IMG/VR virus record: IMGVR_UViG_3300045988_076131
Coordinates: 1 to 64,000 of that record
Reading direction: 5' to 3' (one strand)
Source of the DNA: a virus
DNA length: 64,000 bases
Shown: piece by piece, positions 5,835 through 64,000 of the stretch
How the letters are laid out: each line of letters begins with the position of its first letter
Position numbering within the stretch: the first letter of the stretch is position 1
Notes under the pieces: model-generated
What the model was told of the DNA's origin: nothing
Database searches by the model: none
What the model saw: only the letters and a program-made list of their open reading frames with translations
Made by a program: the position numbers and the translations under genes

Positions 5835-6236
5835 ATGGACGTAGTAGGAAAAATCATAGCGGCCCTGCCACCAAAAAGTGGCACGTCGCAGTCAACCGGC
5901 AAGCCGTGGCAGGTCAACACCTATGTGTTGCAGACCAACGAGCAGACACCGAAGAACATCGCCTTCGATGTGTTCGGTGCAGAGCGTGTCGAGCAGTACA
6001 ATCTCAAAGTGGGCGATATGGTCACAGTGTCAATCGACATCGACGCTCACGAATACAACGGACGTTGGTACAACCAAATCAGAGCATGGAACGTTGTGAA
6101 CCATGCTTCGGCACAGCAGCCGACCGCACAGCAGGCACCACCTCCGACACCGCAGCCTGGCACCTTGTTTCCGCAGCCACCTGCACCAGGAGCACAGCCC
6201 GCACCGTCAGCAGGAACTGACCAACTGCCCTTTTAA
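5835..6236 (+). CDS. SSB-like OB-fold protein (DUF3127-like) with P/Q-rich tail
   Basis: 133 aa; GKPWQVNTYVLQT...FDVFG...GDMVTVSIDIDAHEYNGRWYNQIRAWNV core; PQ-rich linker; acidic/aromatic end DQLPF like SSB tails. Confidence 0.6.
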   Translation: MDVVGKIIAALPPKSGTSQSTGKPWQVNTYVLQTNEQTPKNIAFDVFGAERVEQYNLKVGDMVTVSIDIDAHEYNGRWYNQIRAWNVVNHASAQQPTAQQAPPPTPQPGTLFPQPPAPGAQPAPSAGTDQLPF

Positions 6237-6336
6237 CGTTCGCAAGTACGTTCTGTGGGCGCAAGCCAACCTAAATGCTATCATAGTAGGGTAGGGTAGT
6301 TCCCCTGCCCTACAAACCAAATAAAAAGTCATTGTT

Positions 6337-7248
6337 ATGAAAAACAGAATTTCCCTCGATTTGTCAAATATGGAAGCCTTCAAGGAGCTGACCGACATAC
6401 AACTCGGTGAGCTTATGAGGGCCGTATTCGCTTACGCTTCCGACGGCACGATGTTGTCCGAGGATGCCGACCAAGCCGTCCGTGTCGCGTTCGCCTTTCT
6501 GAAGGCGGACGTGGACGCGGAACGCGACTCGTACAAAAGACGCTGTGAGCGCAACAAAGAGAACGCACGCAAGCGTTGGGCGAAGCGTAATAAAAGTAAA
6601 AGCGCACACAAGACAAGCACACCCAAAGATGCGGCAAGTCCTGTATTGCAGGAAAAGACCGCAACGGTAGACTACGAAAAGCTCGTCGCCTACTGGAACC
6701 GCCGTGTGGACGAAACGAAGTCCTCAATGGCGAAGGTGCTCAACATCACCCCTTACCGCAAGAAGCTGATCGAGGAGCGACTTGCGGAATACAACAATGA
6801 CAACAAGGCATTACAGAAGGTGCTTGACAAGGCTCTCGCAGACCCCTACCTTAACGGCAAGAACCCTTCAAAATGGGTTGCTGACTTCAACTGGCTACTG
6901 AAACCCGAGAACTTCTCGCGGCTCGTAGAGAGTGGTATTGCCACTCCAAATGAGCCGAAACCGCAAGCTGTGACGGTTACGATTACCGAAACCGATTTGG
7001 CAAGCGAACGTCTGGAAGCAGAACGACACAGAGAGGAAATAGAGTTCACACGCGCTGAACAGCAACGTAACAACCTCCTCGCAGCTATCAAGGCTGCGGG
7101 CAGAAACCCGAACTGCATCCAGGCAAGGATAGCATACAACGCCTACGAGGACGGCACACTTGCAAGGCTCGGTATAGAATGGACTCCTAAAACATCAACC
7201 AATGACACTGAAAGACGAAATACAGAAATGGCTAAGCGAGCATCCTGA
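6337..7248 (+). CDS. replication-associated protein (replisome-organizer/DnaD-like N-terminus)
   Basis: 303 aa; position after the recombination genes; basic KRRCERNKENARKRWAKRNK segment. Confidence 0.4.
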   Translation: MKNRISLDLSNMEAFKELTDIQLGELMRAVFAYASDGTMLSEDADQAVRVAFAFLKADVDAERDSYKRRCERNKENARKRWAKRNKSKSAHKTSTPKDAASPVLQEKTATVDYEKLVAYWNRRVDETKSSMAKVLNITPYRKKLIEERLAEYNNDNKALQKVLDKALADPYLNGKNPSKWVADFNWLLKPENFSRLVESGIATPNEPKPQAVTVTITETDLASERLEAERHREEIEFTRAEQQRNNLLAAIKAAGRNPNCIQARIAYNAYEDGTLARLGIEWTPKTSTNDTERRNTEMAKRAS

Positions 7249-7321
7249 CGCTACGGCAGAAGAAGCGATATGGGCAGGAGCATACATCGAAATCGACTTA
7301 TGGTGCAATAAAACAAAATAA
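7202..7321 (+). CDS. small hypothetical ORF (39 aa)
   Basis: MTLKDEIQKWLSEHPDATAEEAIWAGAYIEIDLWCNKTK; fills the gap in the operon. Confidence 0.3.
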   Translation: MTLKDEIQKWLSEHPDATAEEAIWAGAYIEIDLWCNKTK

Positions 7322-7323
7322 CA

Positions 7324-7449
7324 ATGACAACAACAACCGGAATAATATTACTCGTAGCCTACGTCGCCTTTGTGGTAGGCTCAATCGGCTACACAATCGG
7401 GTTTCTTCACGGAAGCTCTGCGAAATACAACGAATATAATGAACTTTAG
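7324..7449 (+). CDS. small membrane protein (41 aa)
   Basis: MTTTTGIILLVAYVAFVVGSIGYTIGFLHG...; one clear TM helix. Confidence 0.35.
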   Translation: MTTTTGIILLVAYVAFVVGSIGYTIGFLHGSSAKYNEYNEL

Positions 7450-7452
7450 CCT

Positions 7453-7560
7453 ATGGAAGCAATGGATAAAGAAGCCTACGAAATCAAAAAGGACGGCATG
7501 ACGCGAGCTGAACGTAGGGCGTATAAGCGTAGGCTGGTGAAACAAAAGAAAGGACAGTAA
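7453..7560 (+). CDS. small basic ORF (35 aa)
   Basis: MEAMDKEAYEIKKDGMTRAERRAYKRRLVKQKKGQ; stops 1 nt before the next ATG. Confidence 0.3.
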   Translation: MEAMDKEAYEIKKDGMTRAERRAYKRRLVKQKKGQ

Positions 7561-7561
7561 T

Positions 7562-8860
7562 ATGGCAAACGAAAACAAAATTATCGCCTATAAAGGCTTT
7601 GACAAAGATTTTAAATGCCGAGGTTTTCAATACGAGGTCGGCAAAACATACGAAATGGACGGCAATATTGCATGTTACAACCGTGGCTTTCACGCTTGCG
7701 AGTCGCCAATGGAGGTGTTCGACTATTATGATATGCTAACCTCTCGTTTCGCAGAAGTGGAACAATCCGGCAAAATGGACAAAGAAGCCGATTCAACAAA
7801 GACGTGTTCTTCGCGTATTAAAATCAAAGCAGAACTAAAACTTGCCGACATCATCAATTTGGGTGTTGAATGGCTGAAAGAAATTACTATGCCATCCAAG
7901 ATTGAAACAAATAACAGTTGCAATAAAGACTACTACGCTCAGATTGGTTCATCGGGCGACTACGCTCAGATTGGTTCATCGGGCGACTCCGCTCAGATTG
8001 GTTCATCGGGCTACTCCGCTCAGATTGGTTCATCGGGCGACTACGCTCAGATTGGTTCATCGGGCGACTCCGCTCAGATTGGTTCATCGGGCTACTCCGC
8101 TCAGATTGGTTCATCGGGCGACTACGCTCAGATTGGTTCATCGGGCGACTCCGCTAAGATTGGTTCATCGGGCTACTCCGCTCAGATTGGTTCATCGGGC
8201 GACTACGCTAAGATTGGTTCATCGGGCGACTACGCTCAGATTGGTTCATCGGGCTACTCCGCTCAGATTGGTTCATCGGGCTACTACGCTCAGATTGGTT
8301 CATCGGGCGACTACGCTAAGATTGGTTCATCGGGCAACTACGCTAAGATTGGTTCATCGGGCGACTCCGCTAAGATTGGTTCATCGGGCAACTACGCTAA
8401 GATTGGTTCATCGGGCGACTACGCTAAGATTGGTTCATCGGGCGACTACGCTCAGATTGGTTCATCGGGCTACTCCGCTCAGATTGGTTCATCGGGCTAC
8501 TACGCTCAGATTGGTTCATCGGGCGACTACGCTAAGATTGGTTCATCGGGCAACTACGCTAAGATTGGTTCATCGGGCGACTCCGCTAAGATTGGTTCAT
8601 CGGGCAACTACGCTAAGATTGGTTCATCGGGCGACTACGCTAAGATTGGCAGTAGTGGTAAAGATTCTGTCATAATGTGCGCAGGATACAACTCTAAAGC
8701 AAAGGCTGCTATTGGAAGTTGGATAACTCTTGCCGAATGGAAAAGGATAGAATATGTATGGAAACCGATTTGCGTAAAAACAGAACAGGTAGATGGGAAG
8801 CGCATTAAGGCAGACACCTATTACAAATTGATAGACGGCAAATTTGAGGAGGTTGAATAA
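7562..8860 (+). CDS. repeat protein: globular N-domain, 27 x 8-aa (x-x-A-Q/K-I-G-S-S-G) repeats, then a C-domain
   Basis: 432 aa; N-terminus KGFDKDFKCRGFQYEVGKTYEMDGNIACYNRGFHACESPMEVFDYY; the other frames of the repeat are low-complexity artefacts. Confidence 0.75.
   Translation: MANENKIIAYKGFDKDFKCRGFQYEVGKTYEMDGNIACYNRGFHACESPMEVFDYYDMLTSRFAEVEQSGKMDKEADSTKTCSSRIKIKAELKLADIINLGVEWLKEITMPSKIETNNSCNKDYYAQIGSSGDYAQIGSSGDSAQIGSSGYSAQIGSSGDYAQIGSSGDSAQIGSSGYSAQIGSSGDYAQIGSSGDSAKIGSSGYSAQIGSSGDYAKIGSSGDYAQIGSSGYSAQIGSSGYYAQIGSSGDYAKIGSSGNYAKIGSSGDSAKIGSSGNYAKIGSSGDYAKIGSSGDYAQIGSSGYSAQIGSSGYYAQIGSSGDYAKIGSSGNYAKIGSSGDSAKIGSSGNYAKIGSSGDYAKIGSSGKDSVIMCAGYNSKAKAAIGSWITLAEWKRIEYVWKPICVKTEQVDGKRIKADTYYKLIDGKFEEVE
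7928..8659 (+). repeat. 27 tandem copies of a 24-bp unit with a 192-bp higher-order duplication
   Basis: unit GAYTMCGCTMAGATTGGTTCATCGGGC; copies 12-19 and 20-27 share the same variant order (DYAQ,YSAQ,YYAQ,DYAK,NYAK,DSAK,NYAK,DYAK). Confidence 0.95.
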
Positions 8861-9408: not shown

Positions 9409-9573
9409 ATGGAGAGTGAGATTTACTACATCAACATGGATGGCAATATCTACTTCAAGGTTGAAGATGGTGTTGTCTGTTCGCAAGGCAAGCAGACCAG
9501 TGTATCGCCCGACAAGCTCTCCGACTTCCTTGCAATAGCAAAGGAGTTAGGGTTTAGAACCGGGAAGCTATGA
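9409..9573 (+). CDS. small hypothetical ORF (54 aa)
   Basis: MESEIYYINMDGNIYFKVEDGVVCSQGKQTSVSPDKLSDFLAIAKELGFRTGKL; ATGA overlap with the next ORF. Confidence 0.4.
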   Translation: MESEIYYINMDGNIYFKVEDGVVCSQGKQTSVSPDKLSDFLAIAKELGFRTGKL

Positions 9574-9754
9574 AAGCCGTACTGACATTAGACAATGGGA
9601 GAAAGATTGCCGCAGACATTTTGCCCCCCCCGATTGGAAACTCCGCAGACCACGCTTTCAAGACGAATACGAACGTTGGTTTGTAGAGGAGTTTAACAAG
9701 GCGCAGCCACACCTGATTCATAAGGTGGTGAAGGCGCACATATTAAGACACTAA
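9570..9754 (+). pseudogene. 61-codon ORF broken at a C8 tract (9624-9631) as assembled
   Basis: MKAVLTLDNGRKIAADILPPP then, with one extra C, DWKLRRPRFQDEYERWFVEEFNKAQPHLIHKVVKAHILRH; the downstream frame is protein-like. Confidence 0.45.
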
Positions 9755-44491: not shown

Positions 44492-47400
44492 ATGGGCAAT
44501 TCAGCTTTAGGCGCAGCGCTATCAATACCGAAAAGCGCTCTTGATGCCATAAAGGAGGCAGACCAGAAACTGAAAGACATACAGAGTACCGCGAAAAACA
44601 CCGCAGCCGGAGTTACTAAGTCCTTTAAGAACATGGCGGTGGGTACACAACCGTTTCTTGACGCATTAGACAAGGTAATAGCAAAACTCAATACAATAAA
44701 CACCTCGGCAACAAGCGCAAGTAGCAGTCTGAGCAACATTGGAGCAAGCGCAGGCAGTATGAGCGGCAATATCACGCAGGCTTCGCAGAATATACAGCAG
44801 ATGGTTGCACAACTTTCAAACATGAAAGGTGCAGGCACAAGTAGTATCATGCAGGCAGTATTTGCGTTTCGGAGATTACAGGAGGCAACCAAGGGTGCAA
44901 GTGGCATGAATATCGCTGAACTCAAAAAAGAGATTGGCGCGATTGATAGCATATTGAAAGATACAAACTATAACCTTACCAAGGCAGACCAAGACTCCCT
45001 AATCAAGCGCAAGAAAACACTCCAGGACGAGCTGAAATACCAACAGCAGATGTGCGAGGAACGCGTTATTGCGTTTCAGAAAGCTCTTGATAAAATGTCG
45101 AGTGCGGAAGCTTCATTTAACGCCAAGCAAAGAAAAGCTTACTCTGACAGAAGTAAAGGATACCAAGAAAAGAACCACAAACAGAACACATCGTACAAAG
45201 GTGCGCTTGATTTCTCCGCAGCGGCTAACACGCTTAACCGACAGGCGCGTGCGATTGAGTATCTGAAAGAAGCCCGTATGAAGCTGTCACAGACGGATGC
45301 GGACTATAAGCAGAAACTTGAGACGCTGAACGCAGCAATCGCTCGGCACACTCAAAACCTCAAAGAAGCAGGCGTAAGCTCGCGCAATCTCGCCGAACAG
45401 ACATCATATATGTCGGGCTATATTTCTCGTTGGGCACAGCGCATGACGTTTGCGTTCTCTATTAATACCGTGCAAGGTTTTGTAGAGCAGATAGCCGCGG
45501 TGCGAGGTCAGTTCGAGTTGTCGCAGCGTTCGCTTGAAGCAATCTTGCAGAACAAGCCGAAAGCGGATGAGATATTCAACAAAACGGTAGAACTTGCCGT
45601 TAAATCTCCTTTCCGTATTAAGGATTTGGTTGATTATACACGACAGCTTTCTGCTTATCGAATTGAATCTGACAAACTTTATGATACCACCAAGCGACTT
45701 GCCGATGTTTCAGCAGGTCTTGGTGTTGATATGGGTAGACTTATCCTTGCTTACGGACAGGTAAAAGCGGCTGCGTATCTCCGTGGTTCAGAGGTGCGTC
45801 AGTTTACGGAGGCAGGCGTAAACATGTACGGAGAGCTACAGTCTTACTTCAAAGAGGTTAAAGGTGAAGCATATACAACAGCGCAGATTGTGGATATGAT
45901 TTCCAAGCGTAAGGTCACATTTGAGGACGTTGAGGCAATATTCAAACGTATGACCGATAAGGGTGGAATATTCTACAATATGCAGGAGATACAGGCAGAA
46001 ACTCTTCAAGGTAAGATTTCAAACCTGAAAGATGCTTTCGACGTAATGCTTAACGACATCGGCAAGTCAAACGAGGGCTTTTTCAAAGGCTCTATTCAGT
46101 TCGCCACAAACTTACTAAATCATTGGGAGGCTATAGCAAATGTTGCAAAAGCCTTGCTTTCCATTGTTGTTGCCATAAAGGTTAATTCTATGTTTATGCA
46201 GTCTAACTTAGGCAAAGCTTTTATTCTTAATGCCGCAATGGTGGGCAGATGGCGAGCCTTTTTAAACCTTATCGAATCTATGCCTACTGCTTTTGGCAAG
46301 ATGAAAACCGCAATTTCTGCTATAGGAGGTTCCTTAAAGGCTGCTTTGGGAGGTTTTGCTTTCTATGCTATTCTTCAAACTATAATGAACTATAGAAATG
46401 CGTTGCAGCAGTTTGACGGAACCATAAGAAAGGCACGTGAAAGCACCATTGACGCATTAGGAAAAATCTCCGAACTCTCTGCCAAATACAAAGACTTTTC
46501 TAATGTTATATATAGAACACAGAACAATGTTGATGACAGCAAAGCCATAGAAGAAAAACGCAAAGCTCTAAACAAACTTATCGAACAAGCGAACAGAGAT
46601 GGCTTGGAGATTAAGATTAATGTTACAGAGCTTAATGAAACACAGCTTGATAAAGAATTTGAGACTCTTAAAAAGAGATATAGGGATTTCGTCTTTGAAC
46701 TTGAAGCCATAAAGGAGCGTGCTGCCCAAAGCGACAAGAGCGGTTGGTGGTGGGGAGTATCCGGCATCAAAGAGGGTTTGGACGAATACAAAACGGCTGC
46801 TATAGACATTATCTCTCAAACCAACAAGATAGAGAAAGCGATGGCTTTAGCCAATATCGGCTATAAAGACGCGAACATACAAACACAGAAGTATTTTGAC
46901 ACTTTGCGCAATGGACGTATTGATGGTGAAGCCGATATTGATTATCTCAAACGTATGCACGATGCGTGGAAAGGCCTGGAAGATTATTATTCTCGCAATA
47001 GCATGGTCTTACCCGATTGGCTTGTCAAAGGACAGGGATACATGAAGGGCGTGTCGGACGGCTTCGATGATTTAAGTTCTGCAATAAAACAAACAGAAGA
47101 GAACTTTAAGGATGTTTTTGTTGGGAAAGGCGGCATAGAAGAGTTCAAGAAGAGATACCAAAAAGACCCTATAAAACTCAAAGTAGAAATAGACCAATAT
47201 GCCGCAGAAAACAGTTTGTCTGATACACAGAAGCGTTTGCTGTATGAAATTGCCGCAAAAAAATACGGCATTAAGTTCCCCGTAGAGGTTGACGATTCTG
47301 ATACAGAGCCTGCCATTAAGACCATTATAGAGGATTTGCAGGAGTATGCCGACAAAAACAAAATTAAGATAAGTGTTGAGGTAAAAGACCCGAAGAACCT

Positions 47401-50251
47401 TAACGACACTATTAATGACTATCAGAAGTCGGCTAAAGACTGGCAAGAAACGATAGACAACATCAAACGTTCGCCCAAAAATTTCTTCACTGGTGCTTAT
47501 CTCGATATTGGCAACGCAGAGAGATGGGGAAAACAGTACGTTGATAGTCACACTGTATTTACTAAAGAACTTGCGTTAAAATATGCCGAAAAACAAAAGC
47601 AAGCTGCACTGTATTGGAATGGACTCCTTGGAGGCAAAGACCCGTTTGCAAAAAAGAGTAATTCCAAAGCTCAACGTGACATTCTTCAGGAGCGCATATC
47701 ACTCCTGAAAGACATGAACGCCAAGTACAACGAGCTTATCAAGATTGAAAGCAAAGAGCGAGCTTTAACAGACACACGCAAGTACTTCAAGGAGGCAGCA
47801 CAAAATGTTGGATGGAACGCCAACGATATTCTCCCCGACGACAAATCTATTGCCAAGCGTATTCGAGAAATCGGCAATCAGTACAAGGATGTGGGTAAGC
47901 GTGGCAATGCACTCCGTATTGCAGCAGACATCGACTTGAACATATCTAAAACGGAGTACGACAAGCTTAAAGATGATATTTCTCGCAATATCGAAGACGC
48001 GTTCTCGCAGTTGCAGCTATACAAAAAACTCAAAGATGAGGGATTGTCAGACACGCTCATCAAAAACATGTTCGGCGATATTACCACATCATTTGAGAGC
48101 GTCCGCGAAAGTATTGACGACGAGTTTAACAAGTATATCTTCAAAGATTACGAGAGCAAATACGGTGGCGACATCAACAAATGGAGTGAGAATATCGTCA
48201 ATCAGTACAACAAGGATATTAGCAACACGGCGAATGTCCTCAAGGAGCGATTTGGCGACAGTGACATCTACAAGCAGTATCTTGACCGAGTACAAAAGCT
48301 CGACAAGCAGGTTTATCAAGACCAAGTAGAGCAAACACAGGAGTTAATCAAGGCATACAAGCAGCAGCTTTCCGACAAGTTGCAATTGGATAAGTGGTAC
48401 ATTGAGGAAAAGCAGAAAATCCAAAACAATGCGAATATTGCCAAGAATCCTGAGTTACAAAAGCAGTTGCAGGAGAATTTGACTGCCCAATACAAGAAAA
48501 AGACTGGCGAGAACACTTGGAAGAATTTCCAAGGCTCTGATATGTATGTTAAGATTTTCGAGAACCTCGACCATACATCCACCAAGGTACTCGACTATAT
48601 GATACAGAGGCTACAATCCTTGCGTGAAGAAATGAAGAACCTCGACCCTACACAAGTCAAGGCTATCACGGAGCAGATTAGCAAATTGCAGGAAACTCGA
48701 AATTCAAGAAATCCTTTCAAGGCTTTCACAAGTGGACTGAAGGAGTTGGTAAAGTACACTAAGGAATACAAGAAACTCGGTGGAGACAATGCTTTAATCT
48801 CCACAAGCGACAAGTACGACAAAGAAGAAAAGAATATAGAGAATCAAGGTAAGATTATCGCCAACTTGGATGCTGAATACAACAAGTCTATGTTGCTTAA
48901 CGGATTGGACGATGAGAAGACCATGACGTTGAAAACCAATCTTGATTTGTCGAAGAACCTACTCGACAATATGAAGAAGCAGCACAGTGAGACAAAAGGC
49001 ACTCTTGATACACTTAACAATGTTCAAGGCGAGACCGACAATGCTAAGAATAAGTTTAGCAAGTCCGTAACAGATATTACCTCTATTGTTTCATCTATGG
49101 CAACAGCATTCAATGGATTGTTTGATGTTTTGGGCGGTTCAGATGAACAACTCGAAAACACTCTTAGTGTCGTTGACAATATCGGTCAAGCAATCGGTTC
49201 GTACTATAGCGGAAACTATGCAGGTGTCGTATCGGGCGCAATGGGCGCGCTTACAGGCGTAGCTAAACTCTTTAGCAACGAAGGAAAGATTGATAAGGAA
49301 ATTGCACGCCAAGAACGCGCTGTAAATTCCTTGCAACACGCTTACGAAAAGCTTAAAAAGAGTATGGACGATGCCTTTGATACACAAAGGCTCTACGAAT
49401 ATAACAAAAAATCGGTCGATGCCCTTAAAAAGCAGCAGAAGGCGTACCAAGCAATGATTAATGCAGAGCGCGGTCGCAAGAAGCCCGATGAAGGTAAGAT
49501 TCAAGAATGGGAACAACAGATTGATGATTTGAACACAACCATCCAAGAATTAGGCGAATCTATGACAGAAGCACTTGGCGGTTTTGGTTCTCAATCTAAC
49601 TATAAATCTGCTGCTGAAGCTTTCTCGGAAGCGTGGGTAGATGCTTTCAATGAAGGTAGTGATGCACTCGAAGCACTCAATAATAAGTTTGACGAGTATT
49701 TCAATACAATGCTCACCAAGCAGTTAATGAATAGAGCTACTTCAAAATACATTCAGCCTATCCTTGAAGCATTCGATAAAGCGGTATCTGAGGGCAGCGA
49801 AGGTGGAAACAATGGTCTTGACGTTACCAAGAAAGAACTCGAAGGTATCAAGGAACTGAAAGACAAGAACCTTGCATTATTCAATGAGTATGCAAAGAAC
49901 TTGATGGATGTTCTCAACGTCAAGCCTACTGGCAGTTCAAATATCTCTGCTTTGCAGCAAGGTATTCAGTCTGTAACTGAATCAACCGCACAGGCGTTGG
50001 AGAGTCTGCTTAATTCCATGAGGTATTATTTGGCAACCCAACAGGCTGATGTGCGGATAATCCGTGATACACTGATTGAACGGCTCGGAGCGTCGGTCGG
50101 TGCAGTCTTGCAGGATGCGAACAATAACCCTGTATTGGTAGAGTTGCGCTTACAAACGACACTGCTCACTGATATTCGAGATACGTTATCAAGCTGTGTA
50201 AAGTCGGGCCACTCGCAGGGCAACAAGGGCATAAAGGTGTTTATGAACTAA
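44492..50251 (+). CDS. tape measure protein
   Basis: 1919 aa, highly helical, follows the G/GT chaperones. Confidence 0.85.
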   Translation: MGNSALGAALSIPKSALDAIKEADQKLKDIQSTAKNTAAGVTKSFKNMAVGTQPFLDALDKVIAKLNTINTSATSASSSLSNIGASAGSMSGNITQASQNIQQMVAQLSNMKGAGTSSIMQAVFAFRRLQEATKGASGMNIAELKKEIGAIDSILKDTNYNLTKADQDSLIKRKKTLQDELKYQQQMCEERVIAFQKALDKMSSAEASFNAKQRKAYSDRSKGYQEKNHKQNTSYKGALDFSAAANTLNRQARAIEYLKEARMKLSQTDADYKQKLETLNAAIARHTQNLKEAGVSSRNLAEQTSYMSGYISRWAQRMTFAFSINTVQGFVEQIAAVRGQFELSQRSLEAILQNKPKADEIFNKTVELAVKSPFRIKDLVDYTRQLSAYRIESDKLYDTTKRLADVSAGLGVDMGRLILAYGQVKAAAYLRGSEVRQFTEAGVNMYGELQSYFKEVKGEAYTTAQIVDMISKRKVTFEDVEAIFKRMTDKGGIFYNMQEIQAETLQGKISNLKDAFDVMLNDIGKSNEGFFKGSIQFATNLLNHWEAIANVAKALLSIVVAIKVNSMFMQSNLGKAFILNAAMVGRWRAFLNLIESMPTAFGKMKTAISAIGGSLKAALGGFAFYAILQTIMNYRNALQQFDGTIRKARESTIDALGKISELSAKYKDFSNVIYRTQNNVDDSKAIEEKRKALNKLIEQANRDGLEIKINVTELNETQLDKEFETLKKRYRDFVFELEAIKERAAQSDKSGWWWGVSGIKEGLDEYKTAAIDIISQTNKIEKAMALANIGYKDANIQTQKYFDTLRNGRIDGEADIDYLKRMHDAWKGLEDYYSRNSMVLPDWLVKGQGYMKGVSDGFDDLSSAIKQTEENFKDVFVGKGGIEEFKKRYQKDPIKLKVEIDQYAAENSLSDTQKRLLYEIAAKKYGIKFPVEVDDSDTEPAIKTIIEDLQEYADKNKIKISVEVKDPKNLNDTINDYQKSAKDWQETIDNIKRSPKNFFTGAYLDIGNAERWGKQYVDSHTVFTKELALKYAEKQKQAALYWNGLLGGKDPFAKKSNSKAQRDILQERISLLKDMNAKYNELIKIESKERALTDTRKYFKEAAQNVGWNANDILPDDKSIAKRIREIGNQYKDVGKRGNALRIAADIDLNISKTEYDKLKDDISRNIEDAFSQLQLYKKLKDEGLSDTLIKNMFGDITTSFESVRESIDDEFNKYIFKDYESKYGGDINKWSENIVNQYNKDISNTANVLKERFGDSDIYKQYLDRVQKLDKQVYQDQVEQTQELIKAYKQQLSDKLQLDKWYIEEKQKIQNNANIAKNPELQKQLQENLTAQYKKKTGENTWKNFQGSDMYVKIFENLDHTSTKVLDYMIQRLQSLREEMKNLDPTQVKAITEQISKLQETRNSRNPFKAFTSGLKELVKYTKEYKKLGGDNALISTSDKYDKEEKNIENQGKIIANLDAEYNKSMLLNGLDDEKTMTLKTNLDLSKNLLDNMKKQHSETKGTLDTLNNVQGETDNAKNKFSKSVTDITSIVSSMATAFNGLFDVLGGSDEQLENTLSVVDNIGQAIGSYYSGNYAGVVSGAMGALTGVAKLFSNEGKIDKEIARQERAVNSLQHAYEKLKKSMDDAFDTQRLYEYNKKSVDALKKQQKAYQAMINAERGRKKPDEGKIQEWEQQIDDLNTTIQELGESMTEALGGFGSQSNYKSAAEAFSEAWVDAFNEGSDALEALNNKFDEYFNTMLTKQLMNRATSKYIQPILEAFDKAVSEGSEGGNNGLDVTKKELEGIKELKDKNLALFNEYAKNLMDVLNVKPTGSSNISALQQGIQSVTESTAQALESLLNSMRYYLATQQADVRIIRDTLIERLGASVGAVLQDANNNPVLVELRLQTTLLTDIRDTLSSCVKSGHSQGNKGIKVFMN

Positions 50252-50380: not shown

Positions 50381-50977
50381 ATGAGAAATAGAATTATTAC
50401 AGCGATTATGGTAACATTTGCCTTTTTTGCGCTATCATGCACACAGAAACAACAGAAAGTAACCACCCATAAACCGACACCATCCACAAAGCAGGTTTTT
50501 CTAAACAAAACAAAGGATGCGCTTAAAAATTTTGTAAAAGACAAAGCAAACAATCCCGATGCTATGAAGATTAGCGGGATGAAAGTGGCGTTTCTTTGTG
50601 ATAGCGCTTGTGCTTTAAACTTTCGTTTCGTTGCAGAAAACAAACTCGGAGGGCATGTTAACGGAAAGGCTCAATTTATACTATTAGAATATCAAGACGA
50701 ATACTATTGGTCGTGGCAAGACGACAAAGACGATTCACCTCACTGTATTGGAGACTGGCTGGGGAATTTTGGCGCATTTTTTGCGGCAACTTTGCATTTG
50801 GAATTTAAAGACACTGACGCTTTTGTAAAATCTAAATGCCCCAAAGATAGTAGTGACTGTGCAAGCATCACCATGGAAGATGAGTATGTACAAGCATATT
50901 GTATAACAAAGAAGTTTGGCGAAAAGGCAGATATGACACCTTCTACTTCGTGTGATCATACAATTCCAGTACAATAG
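50381..50977 (+). CDS. lipoprotein (moron-like)
   Basis: 198 aa; signal peptide plus lipobox MRNRIITAIMVTFAFFALSC; own promoter-like box; hairpin 50985-51018 downstream. Confidence 0.7.
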   Translation: MRNRIITAIMVTFAFFALSCTQKQQKVTTHKPTPSTKQVFLNKTKDALKNFVKDKANNPDAMKISGMKVAFLCDSACALNFRFVAENKLGGHVNGKAQFILLEYQDEYYWSWQDDKDDSPHCIGDWLGNFGAFFAATLHLEFKDTDAFVKSKCPKDSSDCASITMEDEYVQAYCITKKFGEKADMTPSTSCDHTIPVQ

Positions 50978-51088
50978 CCATACCATTAGCCGCCACGCCT
51001 TTGTGCATGGTGGCTAATATTGTTCTTGTCTTATCGTTGGGGGGGTAATATTCCCCCAAATCTTATTTATATCACTATCAGTTCTCAT
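50943..51088 (-). pseudogene. cassette UJ, frame broken at C7 (plus-strand G7 51039-51045); needs +1
   Basis: MRTDSDINKIWGNITPP then NDKTRTILATMHKGVAANGMAIVLELYDHTK; the 3' end overlaps the lipoprotein gene end and a hairpin. Confidence 0.45.
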
Positions 51089-51216
51089 AAAACTCAATTA
51101 TATACGTTACACTATTATTCCCTCCTCCCTTATAGAGGGTGGCGCACATGCAAACGGCTTTGCTTTGCCCCCCTAATCTGTTTGGATATATTTTCCACTT
51201 GGTGTGTTGCTGTCAT
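51078..51216 (-). pseudogene. cassette UI, frame broken at G6 (51168-51173); needs -1 or +2
   Basis: MTATHQVENISKQIRG then QSKAVCMCATLYKGGGNNSVTYIIEFYEN. Confidence 0.5.
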
Positions 51217-51355
51217 AATTCGTAGATTGTTAAAACGTGCGGTAAACCATAGGAGTTGGTTCTGTGTGCTATCTCTGTCGTAAGACAGTTGTATTTACCC
51301 CCCCCCTCACTACTGATACAGGCTTTTTGTAGCCTTGGATAATCAGAATGTTCAT
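51213..51355 (-). pseudogene. cassette UH, frame broken at G9 (51298-51306); needs +1
   Basis: MNILIIQGYKKPVSVVRGGG then KYNCLTTEIAHRTNSYGLPHVLTIYEL. Confidence 0.5.
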
Positions 51356-51507
51356 ATCTCTTTCAATTCTAAAACAAATGGACGTAAATCAAAACCTCCC
51401 AAGCCGTGAGCGTAAAATGCAGTCAGCGTGCCTGTTTTTGCTCTGGGGGGGGTATGAATAACTATTGACTTATACAAAGTCGGATAAAAAACTATTCTAT
51501 TTTCCAT
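51352..51507 (-). CDS. cassette UG (51 aa, intact; C8 tract in frame)
   Basis: MENRIVFYPTLYKSIVIHTPPRAKTGTLTAFYAHGLGGFDLRPFVLELKEI. Confidence 0.55.
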   Translation of the reverse strand: MENRIVFYPTLYKSIVIHTPPRAKTGTLTAFYAHGLGGFDLRPFVLELKEI

Positions 51508-51641
51508 AAAGCTCTAATATTGCCGGTCTGATATTATAGTTCGGATCTATGCCTTTATAGTCGTTTGCCTTTATCGGCTGGCATTTACCCCCCCCCATAT
51601 ATAGACCTTGGCTTAAAATGGTCAAGTATATACTTCCTCAT
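51497..51641 (-). pseudogene. cassette UF, frame broken at G9 (51588-51596); needs -1 or +2
   Basis: MRKYILDHFKPRSIYGGG then KCQPIKANDYKGIDPNYNIRPAILELYGK. Confidence 0.5.
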
Positions 51642-51821
51642 ACACCTCTAACAAATAATTGATTTGCCCCCCCGCATAACAGAACTCGTTTTGAAATCGG
51701 GGCGGCACGAAAAAGCCATAAGATTGTGCCTTGTGCCGTATTTTCGTTCACCGCAAGCGTATTGCCCCCACACCTTTCTTCCAAGCTCAGTGCGGTACTG
51801 ATTAAGTATTTTACTTCTCAT
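51622..51821 (-). pseudogene. cassette UE, frame broken at G7 (51667-51673); needs +1
   Basis: MRSKILNQYRTELGRKVWGQYACGERKYGTRHNLMAFSCRPDFKTSSVMRGG then QINYLLEVYEEVYT. Confidence 0.5.
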
Positions 51822-51964
51822 ACAGTTCTAAGATTTTCATCACACTTCTATCATAACTACCGGTTAAAAGGCAAATACCCCCCGAATATGGAGTAAAACC
51901 GATGTTGTTGATGTGCGGTGTTCCCCCATTCGGAATTTCCGTTAAGTTGACTGATTTTCTTCAT
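51811..51964 (-). pseudogene. cassette UD, frame broken at G6 (51878-51883); needs -1 or +2
   Basis: MKKISQLNGNSEWGNTAHQQHRFYSIFGG then ICLLTGSYDRSVMKILELYEK. Confidence 0.5.
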
Positions 51965-52106
51965 ACATTTCAAATAATAAATTATCTTTCGCCGCAGAGG
52001 TGAGAGAGGATGATTTTTGTCCTCTAAGTTCAATTCTCTGTTCGTGTGGTGAATTGTACCAATCATCAATAGAACGTCCTCTAACGGCAATCACATTACT
52101 TCTCAT
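51942..52106 (-). CDS. cassette UC (54 aa, intact, no long tract)
   Basis: MRSNVIAVRGRSIDDWYNSPHEQRIELRGQKSSSLTSAAKDNLLFEMYEENQST; the RGR...EQRxE...LTS..KDN pattern is seen in variable regions of phage C5-MTases. Confidence 0.6.
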   Translation of the reverse strand: MRSNVIAVRGRSIDDWYNSPHEQRIELRGQKSSSLTSAAKDNLLFEMYEENQST

Positions 52107-52227
52107 ACGTTTCTAAAACACAATCGCATTGCGAGTTATTGCCTGCCCCATGTGCGCCAACACATAAAGCCGAGCCTTTGTGCGACTCAACAATATCTCC
52201 CTTGCGACTAATCTTTATCTTTCTCAT
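52096..52227 (-). CDS. cassette UB (43 aa, intact, no long tract)
   Basis: MRKIKISRKGDIVESHKGSALCVGAHGAGNNSQCDCVLETYEK. Confidence 0.55.
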   Translation of the reverse strand: MRKIKISRKGDIVESHKGSALCVGAHGAGNNSQCDCVLETYEK

Positions 52228-52332
52228 ACACTACAAACACATACCCCCCCCGATGTGCGGTCTGCAAGCATTGGTGTTTGACGGACTTATACCTTGCCTT
52301 GTTACAGCAACTCCGTGTAATCTATTTTTCAT
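52208..52332 (-). pseudogene. cassette UA, frame broken at G8 (52244-52251); needs +1
   Basis: MKNRLHGVAVTRQGISPSNTNACRPHIGGG then YVFVVYEKDKD. Confidence 0.5.
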
Positions 52333-52468
52333 AAATCTCAACAATTCCTGTATGCTGCCTATGTCCTGGAACGTACCACCAACCTATGTATCTTGCGTTT
52401 AACGCAGTGGATTTGGTGGTGGGGGGGGTGATACCACTCCCCATATTAAACGCTCTTGTCGTTCTCAT
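52322..52468 (-). CDS. cassette U0 (48 aa, intact; C8 tract in frame), start overlaps the MTase 3' end
   Basis: MRTTRAFNMGSGITPPTTKSTALNARYIGWWYVPGHRQHTGIVEIYEK. Confidence 0.55.
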   Translation of the reverse strand: MRTTRAFNMGSGITPPTTKSTALNARYIGWWYVPGHRQHTGIVEIYEK

Positions 52469-53678
52469 TATACAAGCCTTCAAGTCTTTGTTTTTCTAAA
52501 CCAAAGCTAAACTCCGCCAATTCACGCTTTTCTTCACCTGTAAGCGCATTAAACTCGTCAGAGGTACAAATATACTCAAACAACTCTTTAACGCTTACCT
52601 GTGGCTCTAAAAGATAGTCTTTGAGTTTTCTTTTATCTGTCCTTGCCATTAACTGCGCTACCGTTTCGTCTTTCAGGTAGTATTTCTCACCTGCCTCTTC
52701 TTGGAGAATATCCTTAATAACGATACCTCGGTCTTCCGGCTGCGGAATATCCACTTCAAGCGGAGGCCATGCAAACGGGTCGCTTTCATCATAAAACAAG
52801 CCTTCTCCTGCGACTGGCTTTGTCTTGATATTAGTCCAATAGATACGTCGTCTGTTCTGTGCCGATACAAGCGCAGAGTTAATATGAATACCACGCACAC
52901 CGATAGCGTGAGAAAGACATCTTTCCCACTTTTCAAGCATCTTGACGTTTTCAAGAAAGAAATAAATATCGGGATTGTACTTACGCAGCTCCGTAAGTAT
53001 TCGCATATATTCCCAAAAGAGATAGGACTGACCTTCAAACTGAAAGCCTTGTGACTTTAATTCGAGATAGCGTTCGAGGGTGTAAATTTCCTCGCCACTC
53101 TTTGTACTCATGCCTTTCATCTTTCCGCTAAAAGAAAACGATTGGCACGGAGAACCTCCGATTAAGATGTCGGGCACCCCGTATTTTTCAACTATCTCGT
53201 CTATATTCAAATCCGTAACGCTACCCAACTGGATAGTATTCGGAAAGTTGTGCATCGTGTTCGCAATAGCGTGCTTATCAATCTCCGATGCAAGATAAGT
53301 CGTTATGTTAGCACCGATGCCGCGTAACGAAACTTGTCCCCCTGAAATTCCGTCAAACAAAGACAAGACCTTGAGGTTGTTCAACTTGATTTTAGGAATG
53401 AAACTGAAAATATGCTTGATAGTTTCAATGTTCCAGCCGTTGCCAAGCCCTTTGTACTGCTGCGTTTCGCTTGTAACAAACTCGTAATCGTGCGGCATAG
53501 TCTGCAACTCGGCACACTCTTGCGGTGTCAGTCGTCTGATAGCTGCCACATATTTTACTCCATTTGCCTCAAACTCTACGCCCTGCTTATTATCGGGCAT
53601 GCGCTCCTGAAATTCCTTCAGTTGCTTTTCTTTTACCTTGCGGTAAACATCCCTTGCGATTACTTCTTTATTCTCCAT
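52446..53678 (-). CDS. DNA cytosine-5 methyltransferase, circularly permuted motif order (IX-X then I-VIII)
   Basis: 410 aa; RRLTPQECAELQTMPHDY (IX), YKGLGNGWNIETIKHIF (X), VLSLFDGISGG (I), ASEIDKHA, GGSPCQSFSFSG (IV), FLENVKML (VI), SAQNRRRIYW (VIII). Confidence 0.85.
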   Translation of the reverse strand: MENKEVIARDVYRKVKEKQLKEFQERMPDNKQGVEFEANGVKYVAAIRRLTPQECAELQTMPHDYEFVTSETQQYKGLGNGWNIETIKHIFSFIPKIKLNNLKVLSLFDGISGGQVSLRGIGANITTYLASEIDKHAIANTMHNFPNTIQLGSVTDLNIDEIVEKYGVPDILIGGSPCQSFSFSGKMKGMSTKSGEEIYTLERYLELKSQGFQFEGQSYLFWEYMRILTELRKYNPDIYFFLENVKMLEKWERCLSHAIGVRGIHINSALVSAQNRRRIYWTNIKTKPVAGEGLFYDESDPFAWPPLEVDIPQPEDRGIVIKDILQEEAGEKYYLKDETVAQLMARTDKRKLKDYLLEPQVSVKELFEYICTSDEFNALTGEEKRELAEFSFGLEKQRLEGLYNENDKSV

Positions 53679-53865
53679 GTATCTCCAAAATTAAATTATC
53701 TTGTGTAGAAGTACTTATTGTTCCGCATCTTTTGTCGGGTCGGCATGAGTACGAGCGCATGTTGGAGCGGTTGCACCACTCGCTCCTCGTACCACTATCG
53801 TACATTTTTCGGTATGCTCAGCCCAACTCGTTGCGGTATTTGTTCAGTATGACTATTTGCGCCAT
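53668..53865 (-). pseudogene. cassette U-1 upstream of the MTase, with an in-frame TGA (53818-53820)
   Basis: MAQIVILNKYRNELG*AYRKMYDSGTRSEWCNRSNMRSYSCRPDKRCGTISTSTQDNLILEIHGE; shares ILNxYRxELG and SCRPD with UE; its end overlaps the MTase ATG with the same junction design. Confidence 0.45.
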
Positions 53866-63037: not shown

Positions 63038-63395
63038 CAGATTTCGTTTTGAATACAAAGTAAGGACATACAAACAAGCATTGCAAGCTTTTGAACTGCA
63101 AACCCTATTTTTTAACATTTTATGTTAATTTATTTAACTATTGTACAGGTTGCAATAATTACAACCATAAGTTCAGGAGAAACAAGATATAAACATACAC
63201 AGGCGAGTAATAAAGACAAAAAGGCTGTTTATTTGTGTTCTAAGCGTGTTTTAACTGAAAGACTAATAACTACACCAAAAGGAAATGAAAGTGCGGCAGA
63301 ACGCAAATAAATAGGCAAATAAACGGCTTTTGAAGTATGGTGGAAATAATAATGAAAATAACAAAAAGTGAAGCACTGCTGCGTGTGACACCTCC

Positions 63396-63699
63396 AAAAA
63401 TAAAAAAAATAAAAAATTAAGGGAAAGGGTGGGTGCGGTGGGTGCGGTGGGTGCCTGGGGGGGTGGGGGTTTAACCCCTGCGGATGGCGAAGGCTCAAAA
63501 AGCAAAGAGTATAAAGCACGTAACACGCTGATACATAACTACTTACAGGCTCTATAAATACTATTTTTTACATACAAGACGGACGTATTACACGAAAAAG
63601 GCGAAAAAGGCGAAAAAGGTATTATATTTATATATACTATTAGATATATAGATATAATATATATAAATATATAATATATAGCTAATAATATATATATAC
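63396..63699. other. origin-like repeat region: A-run, G-rich iterons, A-tract repeats, AT-rich block
   Basis: GGTGGGTGC x3 plus G7/G5 runs (63421-63470); GCGAAAAAG x3 (63592-63619); about 80 bp of >90% A+T (63620-63699). Confidence 0.4.
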
Positions 63700-63727
63700 G
63701 CACGCGCGAGGAGCTGCACCTACACCA

Positions 63728-64000
63728 CTACGCCACGCCGAACTTTTTCGCCTCGTCGTGCCTGCCTGCCTTCCACTCCTGCTCCTGCCTTCTCTCTTCC
63801 CCCCTATATCCCCCCCCCACGGTGCGCAGCCTCGCCGCCGTTGTGCGCTCTGGATGCAGCGCCGTGCACCACTCGCCGCCTCGCTTTCCGTCGATCATTA
63901 GGCACGCCCGCCGCCCTTCCGTGCTGCCATCTGTAAAATGTTCTTTCAGGCGCGCGAGGCGTTCGGCTATTTTGCGCCGTTCTGCCGCTTTCTTTCGTGC
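63728..64000 (-). CDS. 3' end of an ORF entering from beyond the window (uncertain)
   Basis: open minus-strand frame ...KEHFTDGSTEGRRACLMIDGKRGGEWCTALHPERTTAA...AKKFGVA*; GC-rich; contains C9 (63810-63818) and C6 (63799-63804) tracts, so the frame is unreliable. Confidence 0.3.
   Translation of the reverse strand, partial: ARKKAAERRKIAERLARLKEHFTDGSTEGRRACLMIDGKRGGEWCTALHPERTTAARLRTVGGGYRGEERRQEQEWKAGRHDEAKKFGVA

Follow-up and report, generated by a model that had tools for sequence, protein, structure and literature searches.

A Prevotella phage cytosine-5 methyltransferase flanked by an array of putative target recognition mini-genes, most of them with homopolymer runs

Can the DNA-reading part of a cytosine-5 methyltransferase (C5-MTase) be detached from the catalytic chain and kept as a set of small, separately switched genes? 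This question is raised by a locus in the viral record IMGVR_UViG_3300045988_076131, of which positions 1 to 64,000 were analysed (hereafter the window, 64 kb; the host is Prevotella). On the minus strand, between positions 53865 and 50943, a gene for a 410-aa C5-MTase, hereafter the core, is accompanied by 12 mini open reading frames (ORFs) of 41-66 codons each, one located upstream (U0) and eleven downstream (U1-U11). The answer towards which we lean, with moderate confidence, is that the locus encodes a split multispecific phage C5-MTase, in which mini-proteins acting as target recognition domains (TRDs) would dock in trans on a circularly permuted core, each of them being toggled by slipped-strand mutation.

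The coordinates of the core and the units are presented in Table 1. The tandem arrangement of 12 units, one before and eleven behind the C5-MTase gene, had been proposed in an earlier reading of this DNA (the original prediction), and we recovered it at the same positions on the minus strand. All units start with M-(R/K/E) except U9 (MNI) and U10 (MTA), and in most cases they end with (L/I/V)-E-x-(Y/H)-(E/G/D)-(K/E/N), the exceptions being U8 (LELKEI) and U9 (TIYEL); the predicted M-(R/K/E) start and LE-x-Y-E-K tail thus hold for most of the units, although not for these. The ATG of the next unit lies inside or just past the preceding tail, at most junctions within the Tyr-Glu codons (TATGAGAA). 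Because the ATG is embedded in this way, stop and start overlap by ~ 11 nt, and consecutive units are in different frames with an offset of +1. Every unit possesses its own ATG and its own stop, and the TRDs are not contiguous with the catalytic motifs in one polypeptide. In the window, only U1, U3, U4 and U8 are in frame (4/12), whereas 8/12 units are disrupted: U2, U5, U6, U7, U9, U10 and U11 are out of frame, and U0 contains an in-frame TGA instead. The original prediction had regarded the units as missed or scrambled by the ORF track. Scrambled they are, but not through an artefact of gene calling, since the seven downstream frame changes always fall at a G or C homopolymer run. A scan for sigma-70 promoters and terminators, which is ill-suited to Bacteroidota, gave only background-level signals, and a megablast search of GenBank phages with the region found no match.

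The core carries motifs IX (IRRLTPQEC) and X (GNGWNIETIKH) at its N-terminus, followed by motifs I (FDGISGG), IV (PCQ), VI (ENV) and VIII (QNRRR), and its C-terminus consists of the first part of the variable region and a helical tail of ~ 65 aa. Its motif order, IX-X-I..VIII, is therefore a circular permutation. The conserved motifs of PF00145 are all present, but not in the canonical order, which runs from I to X and includes a TRD between VIII and IX; as in enzymes of the M.BssHII type, IX-X precede motif I, and the permutation site lies in the variable region. In a BLASTP comparison with the canonical-order relative L039, residues 102-347 of the core corresponded to residues 8-226 of L039 (motifs I-VIII) and residues 38-96 to residues 375-438 (motifs IX-X), while the TRD block of L039 (227-374) had no counterpart in the core. 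The original description of an MTase with all catalytic motifs and without a TL segment of its own agrees with this comparison. The nearest solved structures are DNMT3A/B/C and then M.HhaI, and Foldseek confirmed the DNMT3-like core and nothing beyond it. Relatives of the core number more than 8000 in databases and occur at 79 IMG/VR loci; core matches of 63-99% identity were found at 17 IMG/VR loci. In addition, the C-terminal ends of four PHROG families of ~ 210-245 aa (phrog_17284, 16427, 16528 and 26324) match the IX-X region of the core only, which suggests that stand-alone, beta-like MTase subunits of the "TRD + IX-X" type may be common in phages.

If the core is devoid of a TRD, is this part supplied by the units? 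To approach this question, one profile hidden Markov model (HMM) was built for each window unit from its orthologues and searched against 41 canonical-order proteins. Five of the 12 units (E-values from 7e-11 to 6e-4) display the homology expected of modules of multispecific phage MTases, with matches between motifs VIII and IX: U0 (5.6e-10), U6 (1.1e-7), U4 (9e-5, in "AMRGR...CLTTVQKDNLII" TRDs), U10 (6e-4) and U11 (7e-11, in "...DDKAHTLLATSHKGAMANGMTLV" TRDs). The canonical-order relatives L018-L060, with cores ~ 50% identical to that of the window, are organized as I..VIII-TRDs-IX-X in one ORF with 2-5 tandem modules. Among these modules, the TRD "CVAMRGR..EQRKNIQQLEPREDGKTNCLTTVQKDNLIVV" is similar to U4, U0 and U6, the TRD "..IRSIDDKAHTLLATSHKGAMANGMMLV" to U11 and U10, and the TRD "..GFGGRHFREIKSGKSCTLLARARNDG.." to the GG..K..C.TL units. 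A second line of evidence is provided by relatives of 446-478 aa (P0031, P0032, P0042, P0047, P0052, P0060, P0085 and P0103) in which one unit is fused in frame before the start Met of the core; the place of the unit is therefore directly N-terminal of motif IX, which is the TRD position of the canonical order. Between U0 and the module at the N-terminus of P0031, the identity is 66% (E 1e-29). Taken as sequence evidence, these data support the identification of the units as TRD modules. The TRD-like character that the original prediction had attributed to the cassettes is borne out by the five matching HMMs, and its phrase "split relative of multispecific phage MTases" is a fair description in view of the TRD homology, the TRD-less core and the in-frame unit-core fusions.

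The separation into several chains is not confined to the permuted form. Locus L062 (IMGVR_UViG_3300021387_000261, about 6000-7660) has the canonical gene order and is split into three parts: motifs I-VIII occupy one ORF, mini-units with C8/C9/C9 runs and the YEE/MKR junction come next, and further TRDs together with motifs IX-X make up a last ORF. U0, in turn, is a separate overlapping ORF across genomes with cores 73-99% identical. Given the retention of U0 as a separate ORF and the split of L062, assembly from separate chains appears to be required by this family. The two TRD recognition loops of M.HhaI (GKGGQGE...ITLSAYGGG) presumably resemble the units as well, a similarity that we take as a lead only and not as a test. 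When a de-permuted construct (core 98-408 + U4 + core N-terminus) was compared with the PDB by phmmer, only motifs I-VIII and X were aligned, and the TRD was not. One mini-unit of L062 seems to start with ACG or TTG instead of ATG.

The overlapping frames raise the possibility that the units are joined to each other or to the core during expression. Fusion by recoding had been offered in the original prediction beside action in trans, and core-unit, unit-unit or unit-core fusions would arise if the junctions or the G/C runs were sites of ribosomal frameshifting or transcriptional slippage. Such a mechanism would agree with the +1 position of each unit relative to its predecessor, with the ease with which fused and unfused unit-core forms interconvert in evolution, and with the occasional database protein that continues across a unit boundary (P0133). 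Polymerases can slip on long homopolymers, although G/C runs are poor sites of transcriptional slippage in comparison with A/T runs. However, no slippery heptamer of a known +1 or -1 type is present at the junctions, just 4 codons ahead of the core ATG are open in the core frame, and twelve consecutive shifts would result in a negligible yield. Moreover, the run-poor arrays of L004 share the separate-ORF layout. Considering these points together with the individual ATG and stop of every unit, we regard recoding as improbable, and this part of the original prediction found no support.

Are the units functional coding sequences, or could they be debris? Related phages, where the same layout was to be expected if the prediction was right, indeed possess orthologous units in a matching layout beside cores 67-90% identical to that of the window (L003, 90%; L080, 81%; L004, 73%; L006, 70%; and L009, 67%). 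The substitution analysis included the frame-shifted units of the window, read in their restored frames. The ratio of nonsynonymous to synonymous substitution rates (dN/dS) of the units was 0.18 against L003 (235 codons); against relatives of 70-80% identity, the proportion of synonymous differences (pS) was 0.76-0.82, i.e., saturated, and that of nonsynonymous differences (pN) was 0.22-0.27. By this measure, the units are under purifying selection and are functional coding sequence rather than debris. The restored readings are confirmed by L004, since most of its units are intact ORFs without long runs; in U5 of this locus, the two halves are joined in a single frame (..NVYGIGCCLKT). Given the orthologous units in relatives, the HMM matches to the TRD region and the low dN/dS, the array is, at the level of sequence, more than a product of chance.

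Purifying selection shows only that the peptides matter, and the docking of the units on the core is a prediction. The mini-proteins could thus be real but serve as regulators or inhibitors of the core, of host MTases or of restriction enzymes, e.g., as dominant-negative TRD fragments or DNA-mimic decoys. Such an explanation would leave the core without a TRD of its own and hence non-specific or inactive alone, and it does not fit the integral position of the module in the fused enzymes, where it is N-terminal, and in the canonical relatives, where it is an internal TRD. We hold it to be quite improbable.

The feature that points to switching is the distribution of the homopolymer runs. Nine units (all but U0, U3 and U4) contain a run of G6-9 or C7-8, and seven of them shift frame exactly there. 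The run supplies the codons for GGG or TPP in a loop rich in Gly and Pro, which shortly precedes the TL-like motif. Of 13 G/C runs of at least 6 nt in the 64-kb window, nine lie within 1.4 kb of array (Poisson p ~ 2e-15). At 17 split-family loci, the run density amounts to 1.58/kb in the arrays versus 0.076/kb in the flanks, i.e., the runs are ~ 20-fold enriched in arrays, with the same loop position in paralogous units, while canonical multi-TRD genes are completely free of such runs in 77.7 kb. The enrichment, the location in homologous loop codons and the absence from canonical relatives led us to reject a nanopore-type homopolymer artefact as the main cause. Reassignment of a stop codon was rejected as well, as the frame differs between units and the tape-measure gene, of 1919 aa, is read without difficulty in code 11.

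The length of every run differs between loci with identical 22-nt flanks. In L090, 99.96% of 7,234 nt match the window, and the sole indel, from G9 to G8, restores the frame of U7. Among 97 indel events between the window and 7 close relatives, 24 occurred in G/C runs of at least 6 nt, although these runs comprise ~ 1% of the aligned sequence. For 5 of the 7 frame-shifted units (U2, U6, U7, U10 and U11), an in-frame copy exists in some relative. The run-bearing units are a mixture of in-frame (ON) and out-of-frame (OFF) copies, whereas the run-less units are intact wherever compared, U3 in 9/9 loci that have a complete copy and U4 in 17/17 loci. Interrupted runs are likewise all in frame: CCCCTCCCCC in U1, GGGGGGAGG in U2, CCCCTCC and ACTTCTCC in U11, and GGGGGA in the core. 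The latter run lies in motif I; it is G6 and in frame in L001 and L002, while G7 (L008) and G8 (L012 and L080) shift the frame of the core, so that it may serve as a master ON/OFF switch. In these comparisons, the behaviour of the runs is that of contingency switches, and we infer that switching takes place within populations.

Several observations weigh against the proposed split and switched enzyme. Among the 41 canonical proteins, no counterpart was detected for U1, U2, U3, U5, U7, U8 and U9, and no unit family was found in Pfam or PHROGs scans of the units. Gene callers generally annotate nothing within the array; U4 and U1 were nonetheless called independently as small proteins in other assemblies. 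In the AlphaFold2 model of the fusion P0042, the mean predicted local distance difference test score (pLDDT) is 82 for the core but 46-51 for the N-terminal unit, and U4 modelled alone reached a pLDDT of 49. Run-bearing genomes almost always have U5, U9 and U10 in the OFF state, a poorer outcome than the one third that chance alone would give. Differences in run length between consensus metagenome assemblies could partly reflect consensus, assembly or sequencing error. Some units are broken in run-poor arrays too (L004), i.e., there is some decay, and in covalently fused genomes (L009), the downstream units would have to compete for the same site.

Some of these observations could also be read as signs of a decaying remnant, that is, a multi-TRD gene broken by indels at a largely non-functional locus, where run differences are assembly noise. 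The eight disrupted units of the window, the three units that are almost always OFF, the broken units of run-poor arrays and the frame-shifted cores of L008, L012 and L080 would be in line with it. However, protein sequence is conserved where synonymous sites are saturated, the ATG-in-tail architecture is kept down to ~ 67% core identity, and the core family exceeds 8000 database relatives. Decay would also leave no reason for run-less units to be always intact, for interrupted runs to be always in frame, or for runs to be concentrated ~ 20-fold at one loop position of paralogous units. We therefore consider decay a very improbable explanation of the locus as a whole.

A further alternative concerns which of the units are used. 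The junction sequence GA-nn-T-n-TATGAGAA is present 13 times, and close relatives differ by gain or loss of whole units with breakpoints at the junctions. It is conceivable that only the unit beside the N-terminus of the core is used and that the eleven downstream units form an archive of silent cassettes, moved by recombination or gene conversion at the junctions, as in pilS/pilE or hsdS. The paralogy of U6 with U0 and the retention of downstream units in the fused-type genomes L009 and L011 would be expected in such an archive; the mosaicism at the junctions fits evolutionary shuffling. All copies are direct repeats, so that the core would be lost in a simple crossover; none of the neighbouring genes was recognised as encoding a recombinase; and the type of U0 is stable across cores 70-99% identical. 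Finally, an own ATG and a post-tail stop in every unit are needless for silent copies, and homopolymer switches in them would be purposeless. On this evidence, a silent library is unlikely.

We therefore return to the split multispecific C5-MTase and outline how it might operate. The permuted core chain would provide all catalytic and S-adenosylmethionine-binding motifs and the first part of the variable region, without the two DNA-reading TRD loops. The missing loops would come from the separate 41-66-aa mini-proteins, probably encoded in one operon and translated by stop/start overlap. The docking site of each mini-protein would lie between two helical extensions of the core, one N-terminal and one C-terminal, which are family-specific and predicted in the AlphaFold2 model of P0042 as helices 40-75 and 386-453, and docking would confer one sequence specificity. 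In this way, several restriction sites would be methylated, and hence protected, by the phage. Slippage in the nine run-bearing units would shift each of them in or out of frame independently, leaving the core untouched, and a phage population would hold many combinations of specificities. The presumed benefit is protection from type II restriction, balanced against exposure to methylation-dependent restriction. The splitting off of the TRDs would also explain why runs are tolerated here and absent from single-ORF relatives, since any TRD frameshift in a canonical gene would cost the protein its motifs IX-X. What we infer is that the units are translated and assemble in trans, together with their specificities, the rate of switching and the selective benefit. 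More tentative, and in our opinion somewhat short of probable, is the full combinatorial form of such a contingency system, with freely diffusing TRD peptides of ~ 50 aa, one slipped-strand switch per peptide, a master switch in motif I and up to ~ 2^11 patterns, which would permit escape from both methylation-sensitive and methylation-dependent restriction in Prevotella.

How does this locus compare with known systems? One close likeness is to the multispecific C5-MTases of Bacillus phages (SPR, phi3T, rho11s, SPbeta and H2, with M.(phi)BssHII), which are also phage-borne and combine one core with several TRDs. Their TRDs are ~ 40-50 aa long with one specificity each, and the number and order of TRDs vary between relatives (PMC8936443, citing Wilke 1988 and Sethmann 1999). 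The canonical-order relatives L018-L060 share this multi-TRD layout. In the Bacillus phage enzymes, however, all TRDs are located in one polypeptide between VIII and IX, whereas the window has separate mini-ORFs, a permuted core and run-bearing modules, and its multispecificity is a prediction.

Separate chains are known among C5-MTases. In M.EcoHK31I, a small second (beta) polypeptide is needed beside the alpha chain with the conserved motifs. M.AquI is a natural two-chain enzyme (alpha/beta) cut in the variable region, and engineered fragments of M.BspRI, M.HhaI and M.SssI complement each other across this region (PMC5944983, PMC3404938). Assembly in trans would accordingly have a precedent in M.AquI and in fragment complementation. 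M.AquI and M.EcoHK31I resemble the window in having part of the variable region as a separate conserved ORF, a likeness that here holds at the gene level only, but they consist of two chains with one specificity, in contrast to one complete catalytic chain with up to twelve alternative small chains. Circular permutation, with IX-X before I-VIII and the break in the variable region, is known from M.BssHII, M.Alw26I, M2.Eco31I, M.Esp3I and M2.BsaI (PMC5944983). These enzymes keep the TRD in the same chain, while that of the window is detached, except in fused relatives such as P0031 and P0042.

Switching by simple sequence repeats (SSRs) is known from phase-variable MTases, namely, the Type III mod phasevarions and the MTase genes with poly-G/C tracts in Helicobacter, Campylobacter and Neisseria (PMC3936762, PMC4889913). 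Both there and in the window, a homopolymer within the coding sequence sets the frame, and its length is polymorphic among near-identical genomes, with ON and OFF forms. The SSR-switched enzymes are bacterial and chromosomal with one switch per enzyme, whereas the window has a phage enzyme of the C5 class with up to nine module switches and one in motif I. A library of alternative TRDs serving one methyltransferase with several specificities is also found in the Type I hsdS cassettes (SpnD39III); these differ in site-specific inversion among inverted repeats, in methylation of adenine (m6A) and in the expression of one hsdS at a time, as opposed to direct repeats, no recombinase nearby and several modules that may be ON together. 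In full-text literature searches, neither TRD mini-genes in an array nor TRDs switched by homopolymers were found described for a phage, in agreement with the original prediction, whose author knew of no described system with this architecture.

If the proposed reading is correct, the DNA-reading module of a C5-MTase can be a free, exchangeable mini-subunit of ~ 50 residues. This would bear on the old question of how a single catalytic site is served by the alternative TRDs of a multispecific MTase, and would supply tools for targeted methylation with a natural kit of plug-in specificities. It would also mean that simple-sequence contingency arrays are used beyond bacterial pathogens, by phages too, which diversify their own epigenetic coat. 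The core family is abundant in human-gut Prevotella phages. Since gene callers annotate nothing in the arrays, a layer of phage-host conflict would then be invisible in current virome annotation.

Table 1 Position and state of the core gene, its motif I run and the flanking units in the window (a slash marks the frame change; ON, in frame; OFF, out of frame)
Feature	Position	Strand	Product or restored translation	Run	State
Core C5-MTase gene	52446..53678	minus	410 aa, PF00145 (E 1.2e-38)		
Core motif I G run	53337..53341	minus	FDGISGGQ codons	GGGGGA	in frame
U0 (upstream, putative TRD unit)	53668..53865	minus	MAQIVILNKYRNELG (TGA) AYRKMYDSGTRSEWCNRSNMRSYSCRPDKRCGTISTSTQDNLILEIHGE stop		
U1	52322..52468	minus	MRTTRAFNMGSGITPPTTKSTALNARYIGWWYVPGHRQHTGIVEIYEK	C8, 52421-52428	ON
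U2	52208..52332	minus	MKNRLHGVAVTRQGISPSNTNACRPHIGG / YVFVVYEKDKD	G8, 52244-52251	OFF
U3	52096..52227	minus	MRKIKISRKGDIVESHKGSALCVGAHGAGNNSQCDCVLETYEK	none	intact
U4 ("UC" of the original prediction)	51942..52106	minus	MRSNVIAVRGRSIDDWYNSPHEQRIELRGQKSSSLTSAAKDNLLFEMYEENQST	none	intact
U5	51811..51964	minus	MKKISQLNGNSEWGNTAHQQHRFYSIFGG / ICLLTGSYDRSVMKILELYEK	G6, 51878-51883	OFF
U6	51622..51821	minus	MRSKILNQYRTELGRKVWGQYACGERKYGTRHNLMAFSCRPDFKTSSVMRGG / QINYLLEVYEEVYT	G7, 51667-51673	OFF
U7	51497..51641	minus	MRKYILDHFKPRSIYGG / KCQPIKANDYKGIDPNYNIRPAILELYGK	G9, 51588-51596	OFF
U8	51352..51507	minus	MENRIVFYPTLYKSIVIHTPPRAKTGTLTAFYAHGLGGFDLRPFVLELKEI	C8, 51445-51452	ON
U9	51213..51355	minus	MNILIIQGYKKPVSVVRGG / KYNCLTTEIAHRTNSYGLPHVLTIYEL	G9, 51298-51306	OFF
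U10	51078..51216	minus	MTATHQVENISKQIRG / QSKAVCMCATLYKGGGNNSVTYIIEFYEN	G6, 51168-51173	OFF
U11	50943..51088	minus	MRTDSDINKIWGNITPP / NDKTRTILATMHKGVAANGMAIVLELYDHTK	C7, 51039-51045	OFF

The individual units differ in their fate among relatives. U0 has no run and is knocked out in the window by the TGA at 53820-53818; its stop overlaps the ATG of the core, relative to which its frame is +1, and it is an intact separate ORF in L002, L015, L008, L089, L004, L013, L005, L007 and L080. A "TIVVRG" reading in another frame of U0 had been considered as a frameshift remnant and was dropped once orthologues gave the true frame. The inactivation of U0 differs among close relatives: the window and L090 have the TGA nonsense codon, L001 an indel frameshift, L091 an internal deletion between two GATAAT repeats, and L006 a G9 run.

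Orthologues of U1 were identified in L003, L006, L004 and L080, and small-ORF homologues are represented by P0139-P0141; besides the interrupted form, its run in near-identical loci is C7, C8 or C9. Small proteins homologous to U4 number 18 and are 47-86 aa long. When U4 and U1 were used in word-based database searches, small ORFs alone were recovered, without canonical MTases or C-terminal fusions, and BLASTP of U9 against P0042 gave no significant match. For U2, which would be in frame with G6 or G9, the lengths observed were G6 (L002, L015 and L008), G7 (L091), G8 (window) and G9 (L089), with the interrupted run in L001. U5 would be in frame with G5 or G8, and its relatives have G7 (L002) and G9 (L015). 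U6, with lengths of G5, G7 and G8 recorded, would be in frame with G8 or G5 and is ON in L002 and L089 (G8) and in L015 (G5). U7 would be in frame with G8, and its L004 orthologue is intact and run-less. U8 is ON with C8 (window, L090 and L001) and OFF with C7 (L002, L015 and L008) or C9 (L091). U9 would be in frame with G10 or G7; other run lengths occur in L002, L008 and L091, and it is OFF in 6/6 loci that have this unit. U10 would be in frame with G5 or G8; G6, G7, G8 and G9 are found in relatives, and it is ON in L087 and also in the run-less L004 and L013. U11 would be in frame with C8, being ON in L001 (C8) and OFF with C6; of its interrupted runs, which are ON, CCCCTCC belongs to L002 and ACTTCTCC to L003, L014, L087 and L088.

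In L082 (Prevotella sp. oral taxon 376 F0043), two repeat-rich ORFs follow downstream of a canonical multi-TRD MTase, one with ~ 20 tandem GSSGD(S/Y)AKI repeats and the other with long GSGYG-type repeats.

The end of U11 is overlapped by 35 nt by a convergent ORF of 198 aa (50381-50977, plus strand) with a lipoprotein-like signal (..FFALSC..); this ORF, located just past the tape-measure gene (44492-50251), has no PHROGs family. Two other regions of the window contain long G/C runs. A small ORF at 9570-9754 (plus strand) is split by a C8 run (9624-9631) into MKAVLTLDNGRKIAADILPPP / DWKLRRPRFQDEYERWFVEEFNKAQPHLIHKVVKAHILRH, the latter ending in a stop; the halves would be joined by C9 or C6, so that this ORF may be a further homopolymer switch, one that is not part of the MTase array. 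The rest of the long G/C runs in the window fall at 63380-63900. This non-coding region of low complexity, which might represent the end of the genome, an origin or an attachment region, includes A-runs, three GGGTGCGGT repeats, G7/G5 runs, three GGCGAAAAA repeats and ~ 90 nt of ATATA-like sequence followed by CCCCCTATATCCCCCCCCC.

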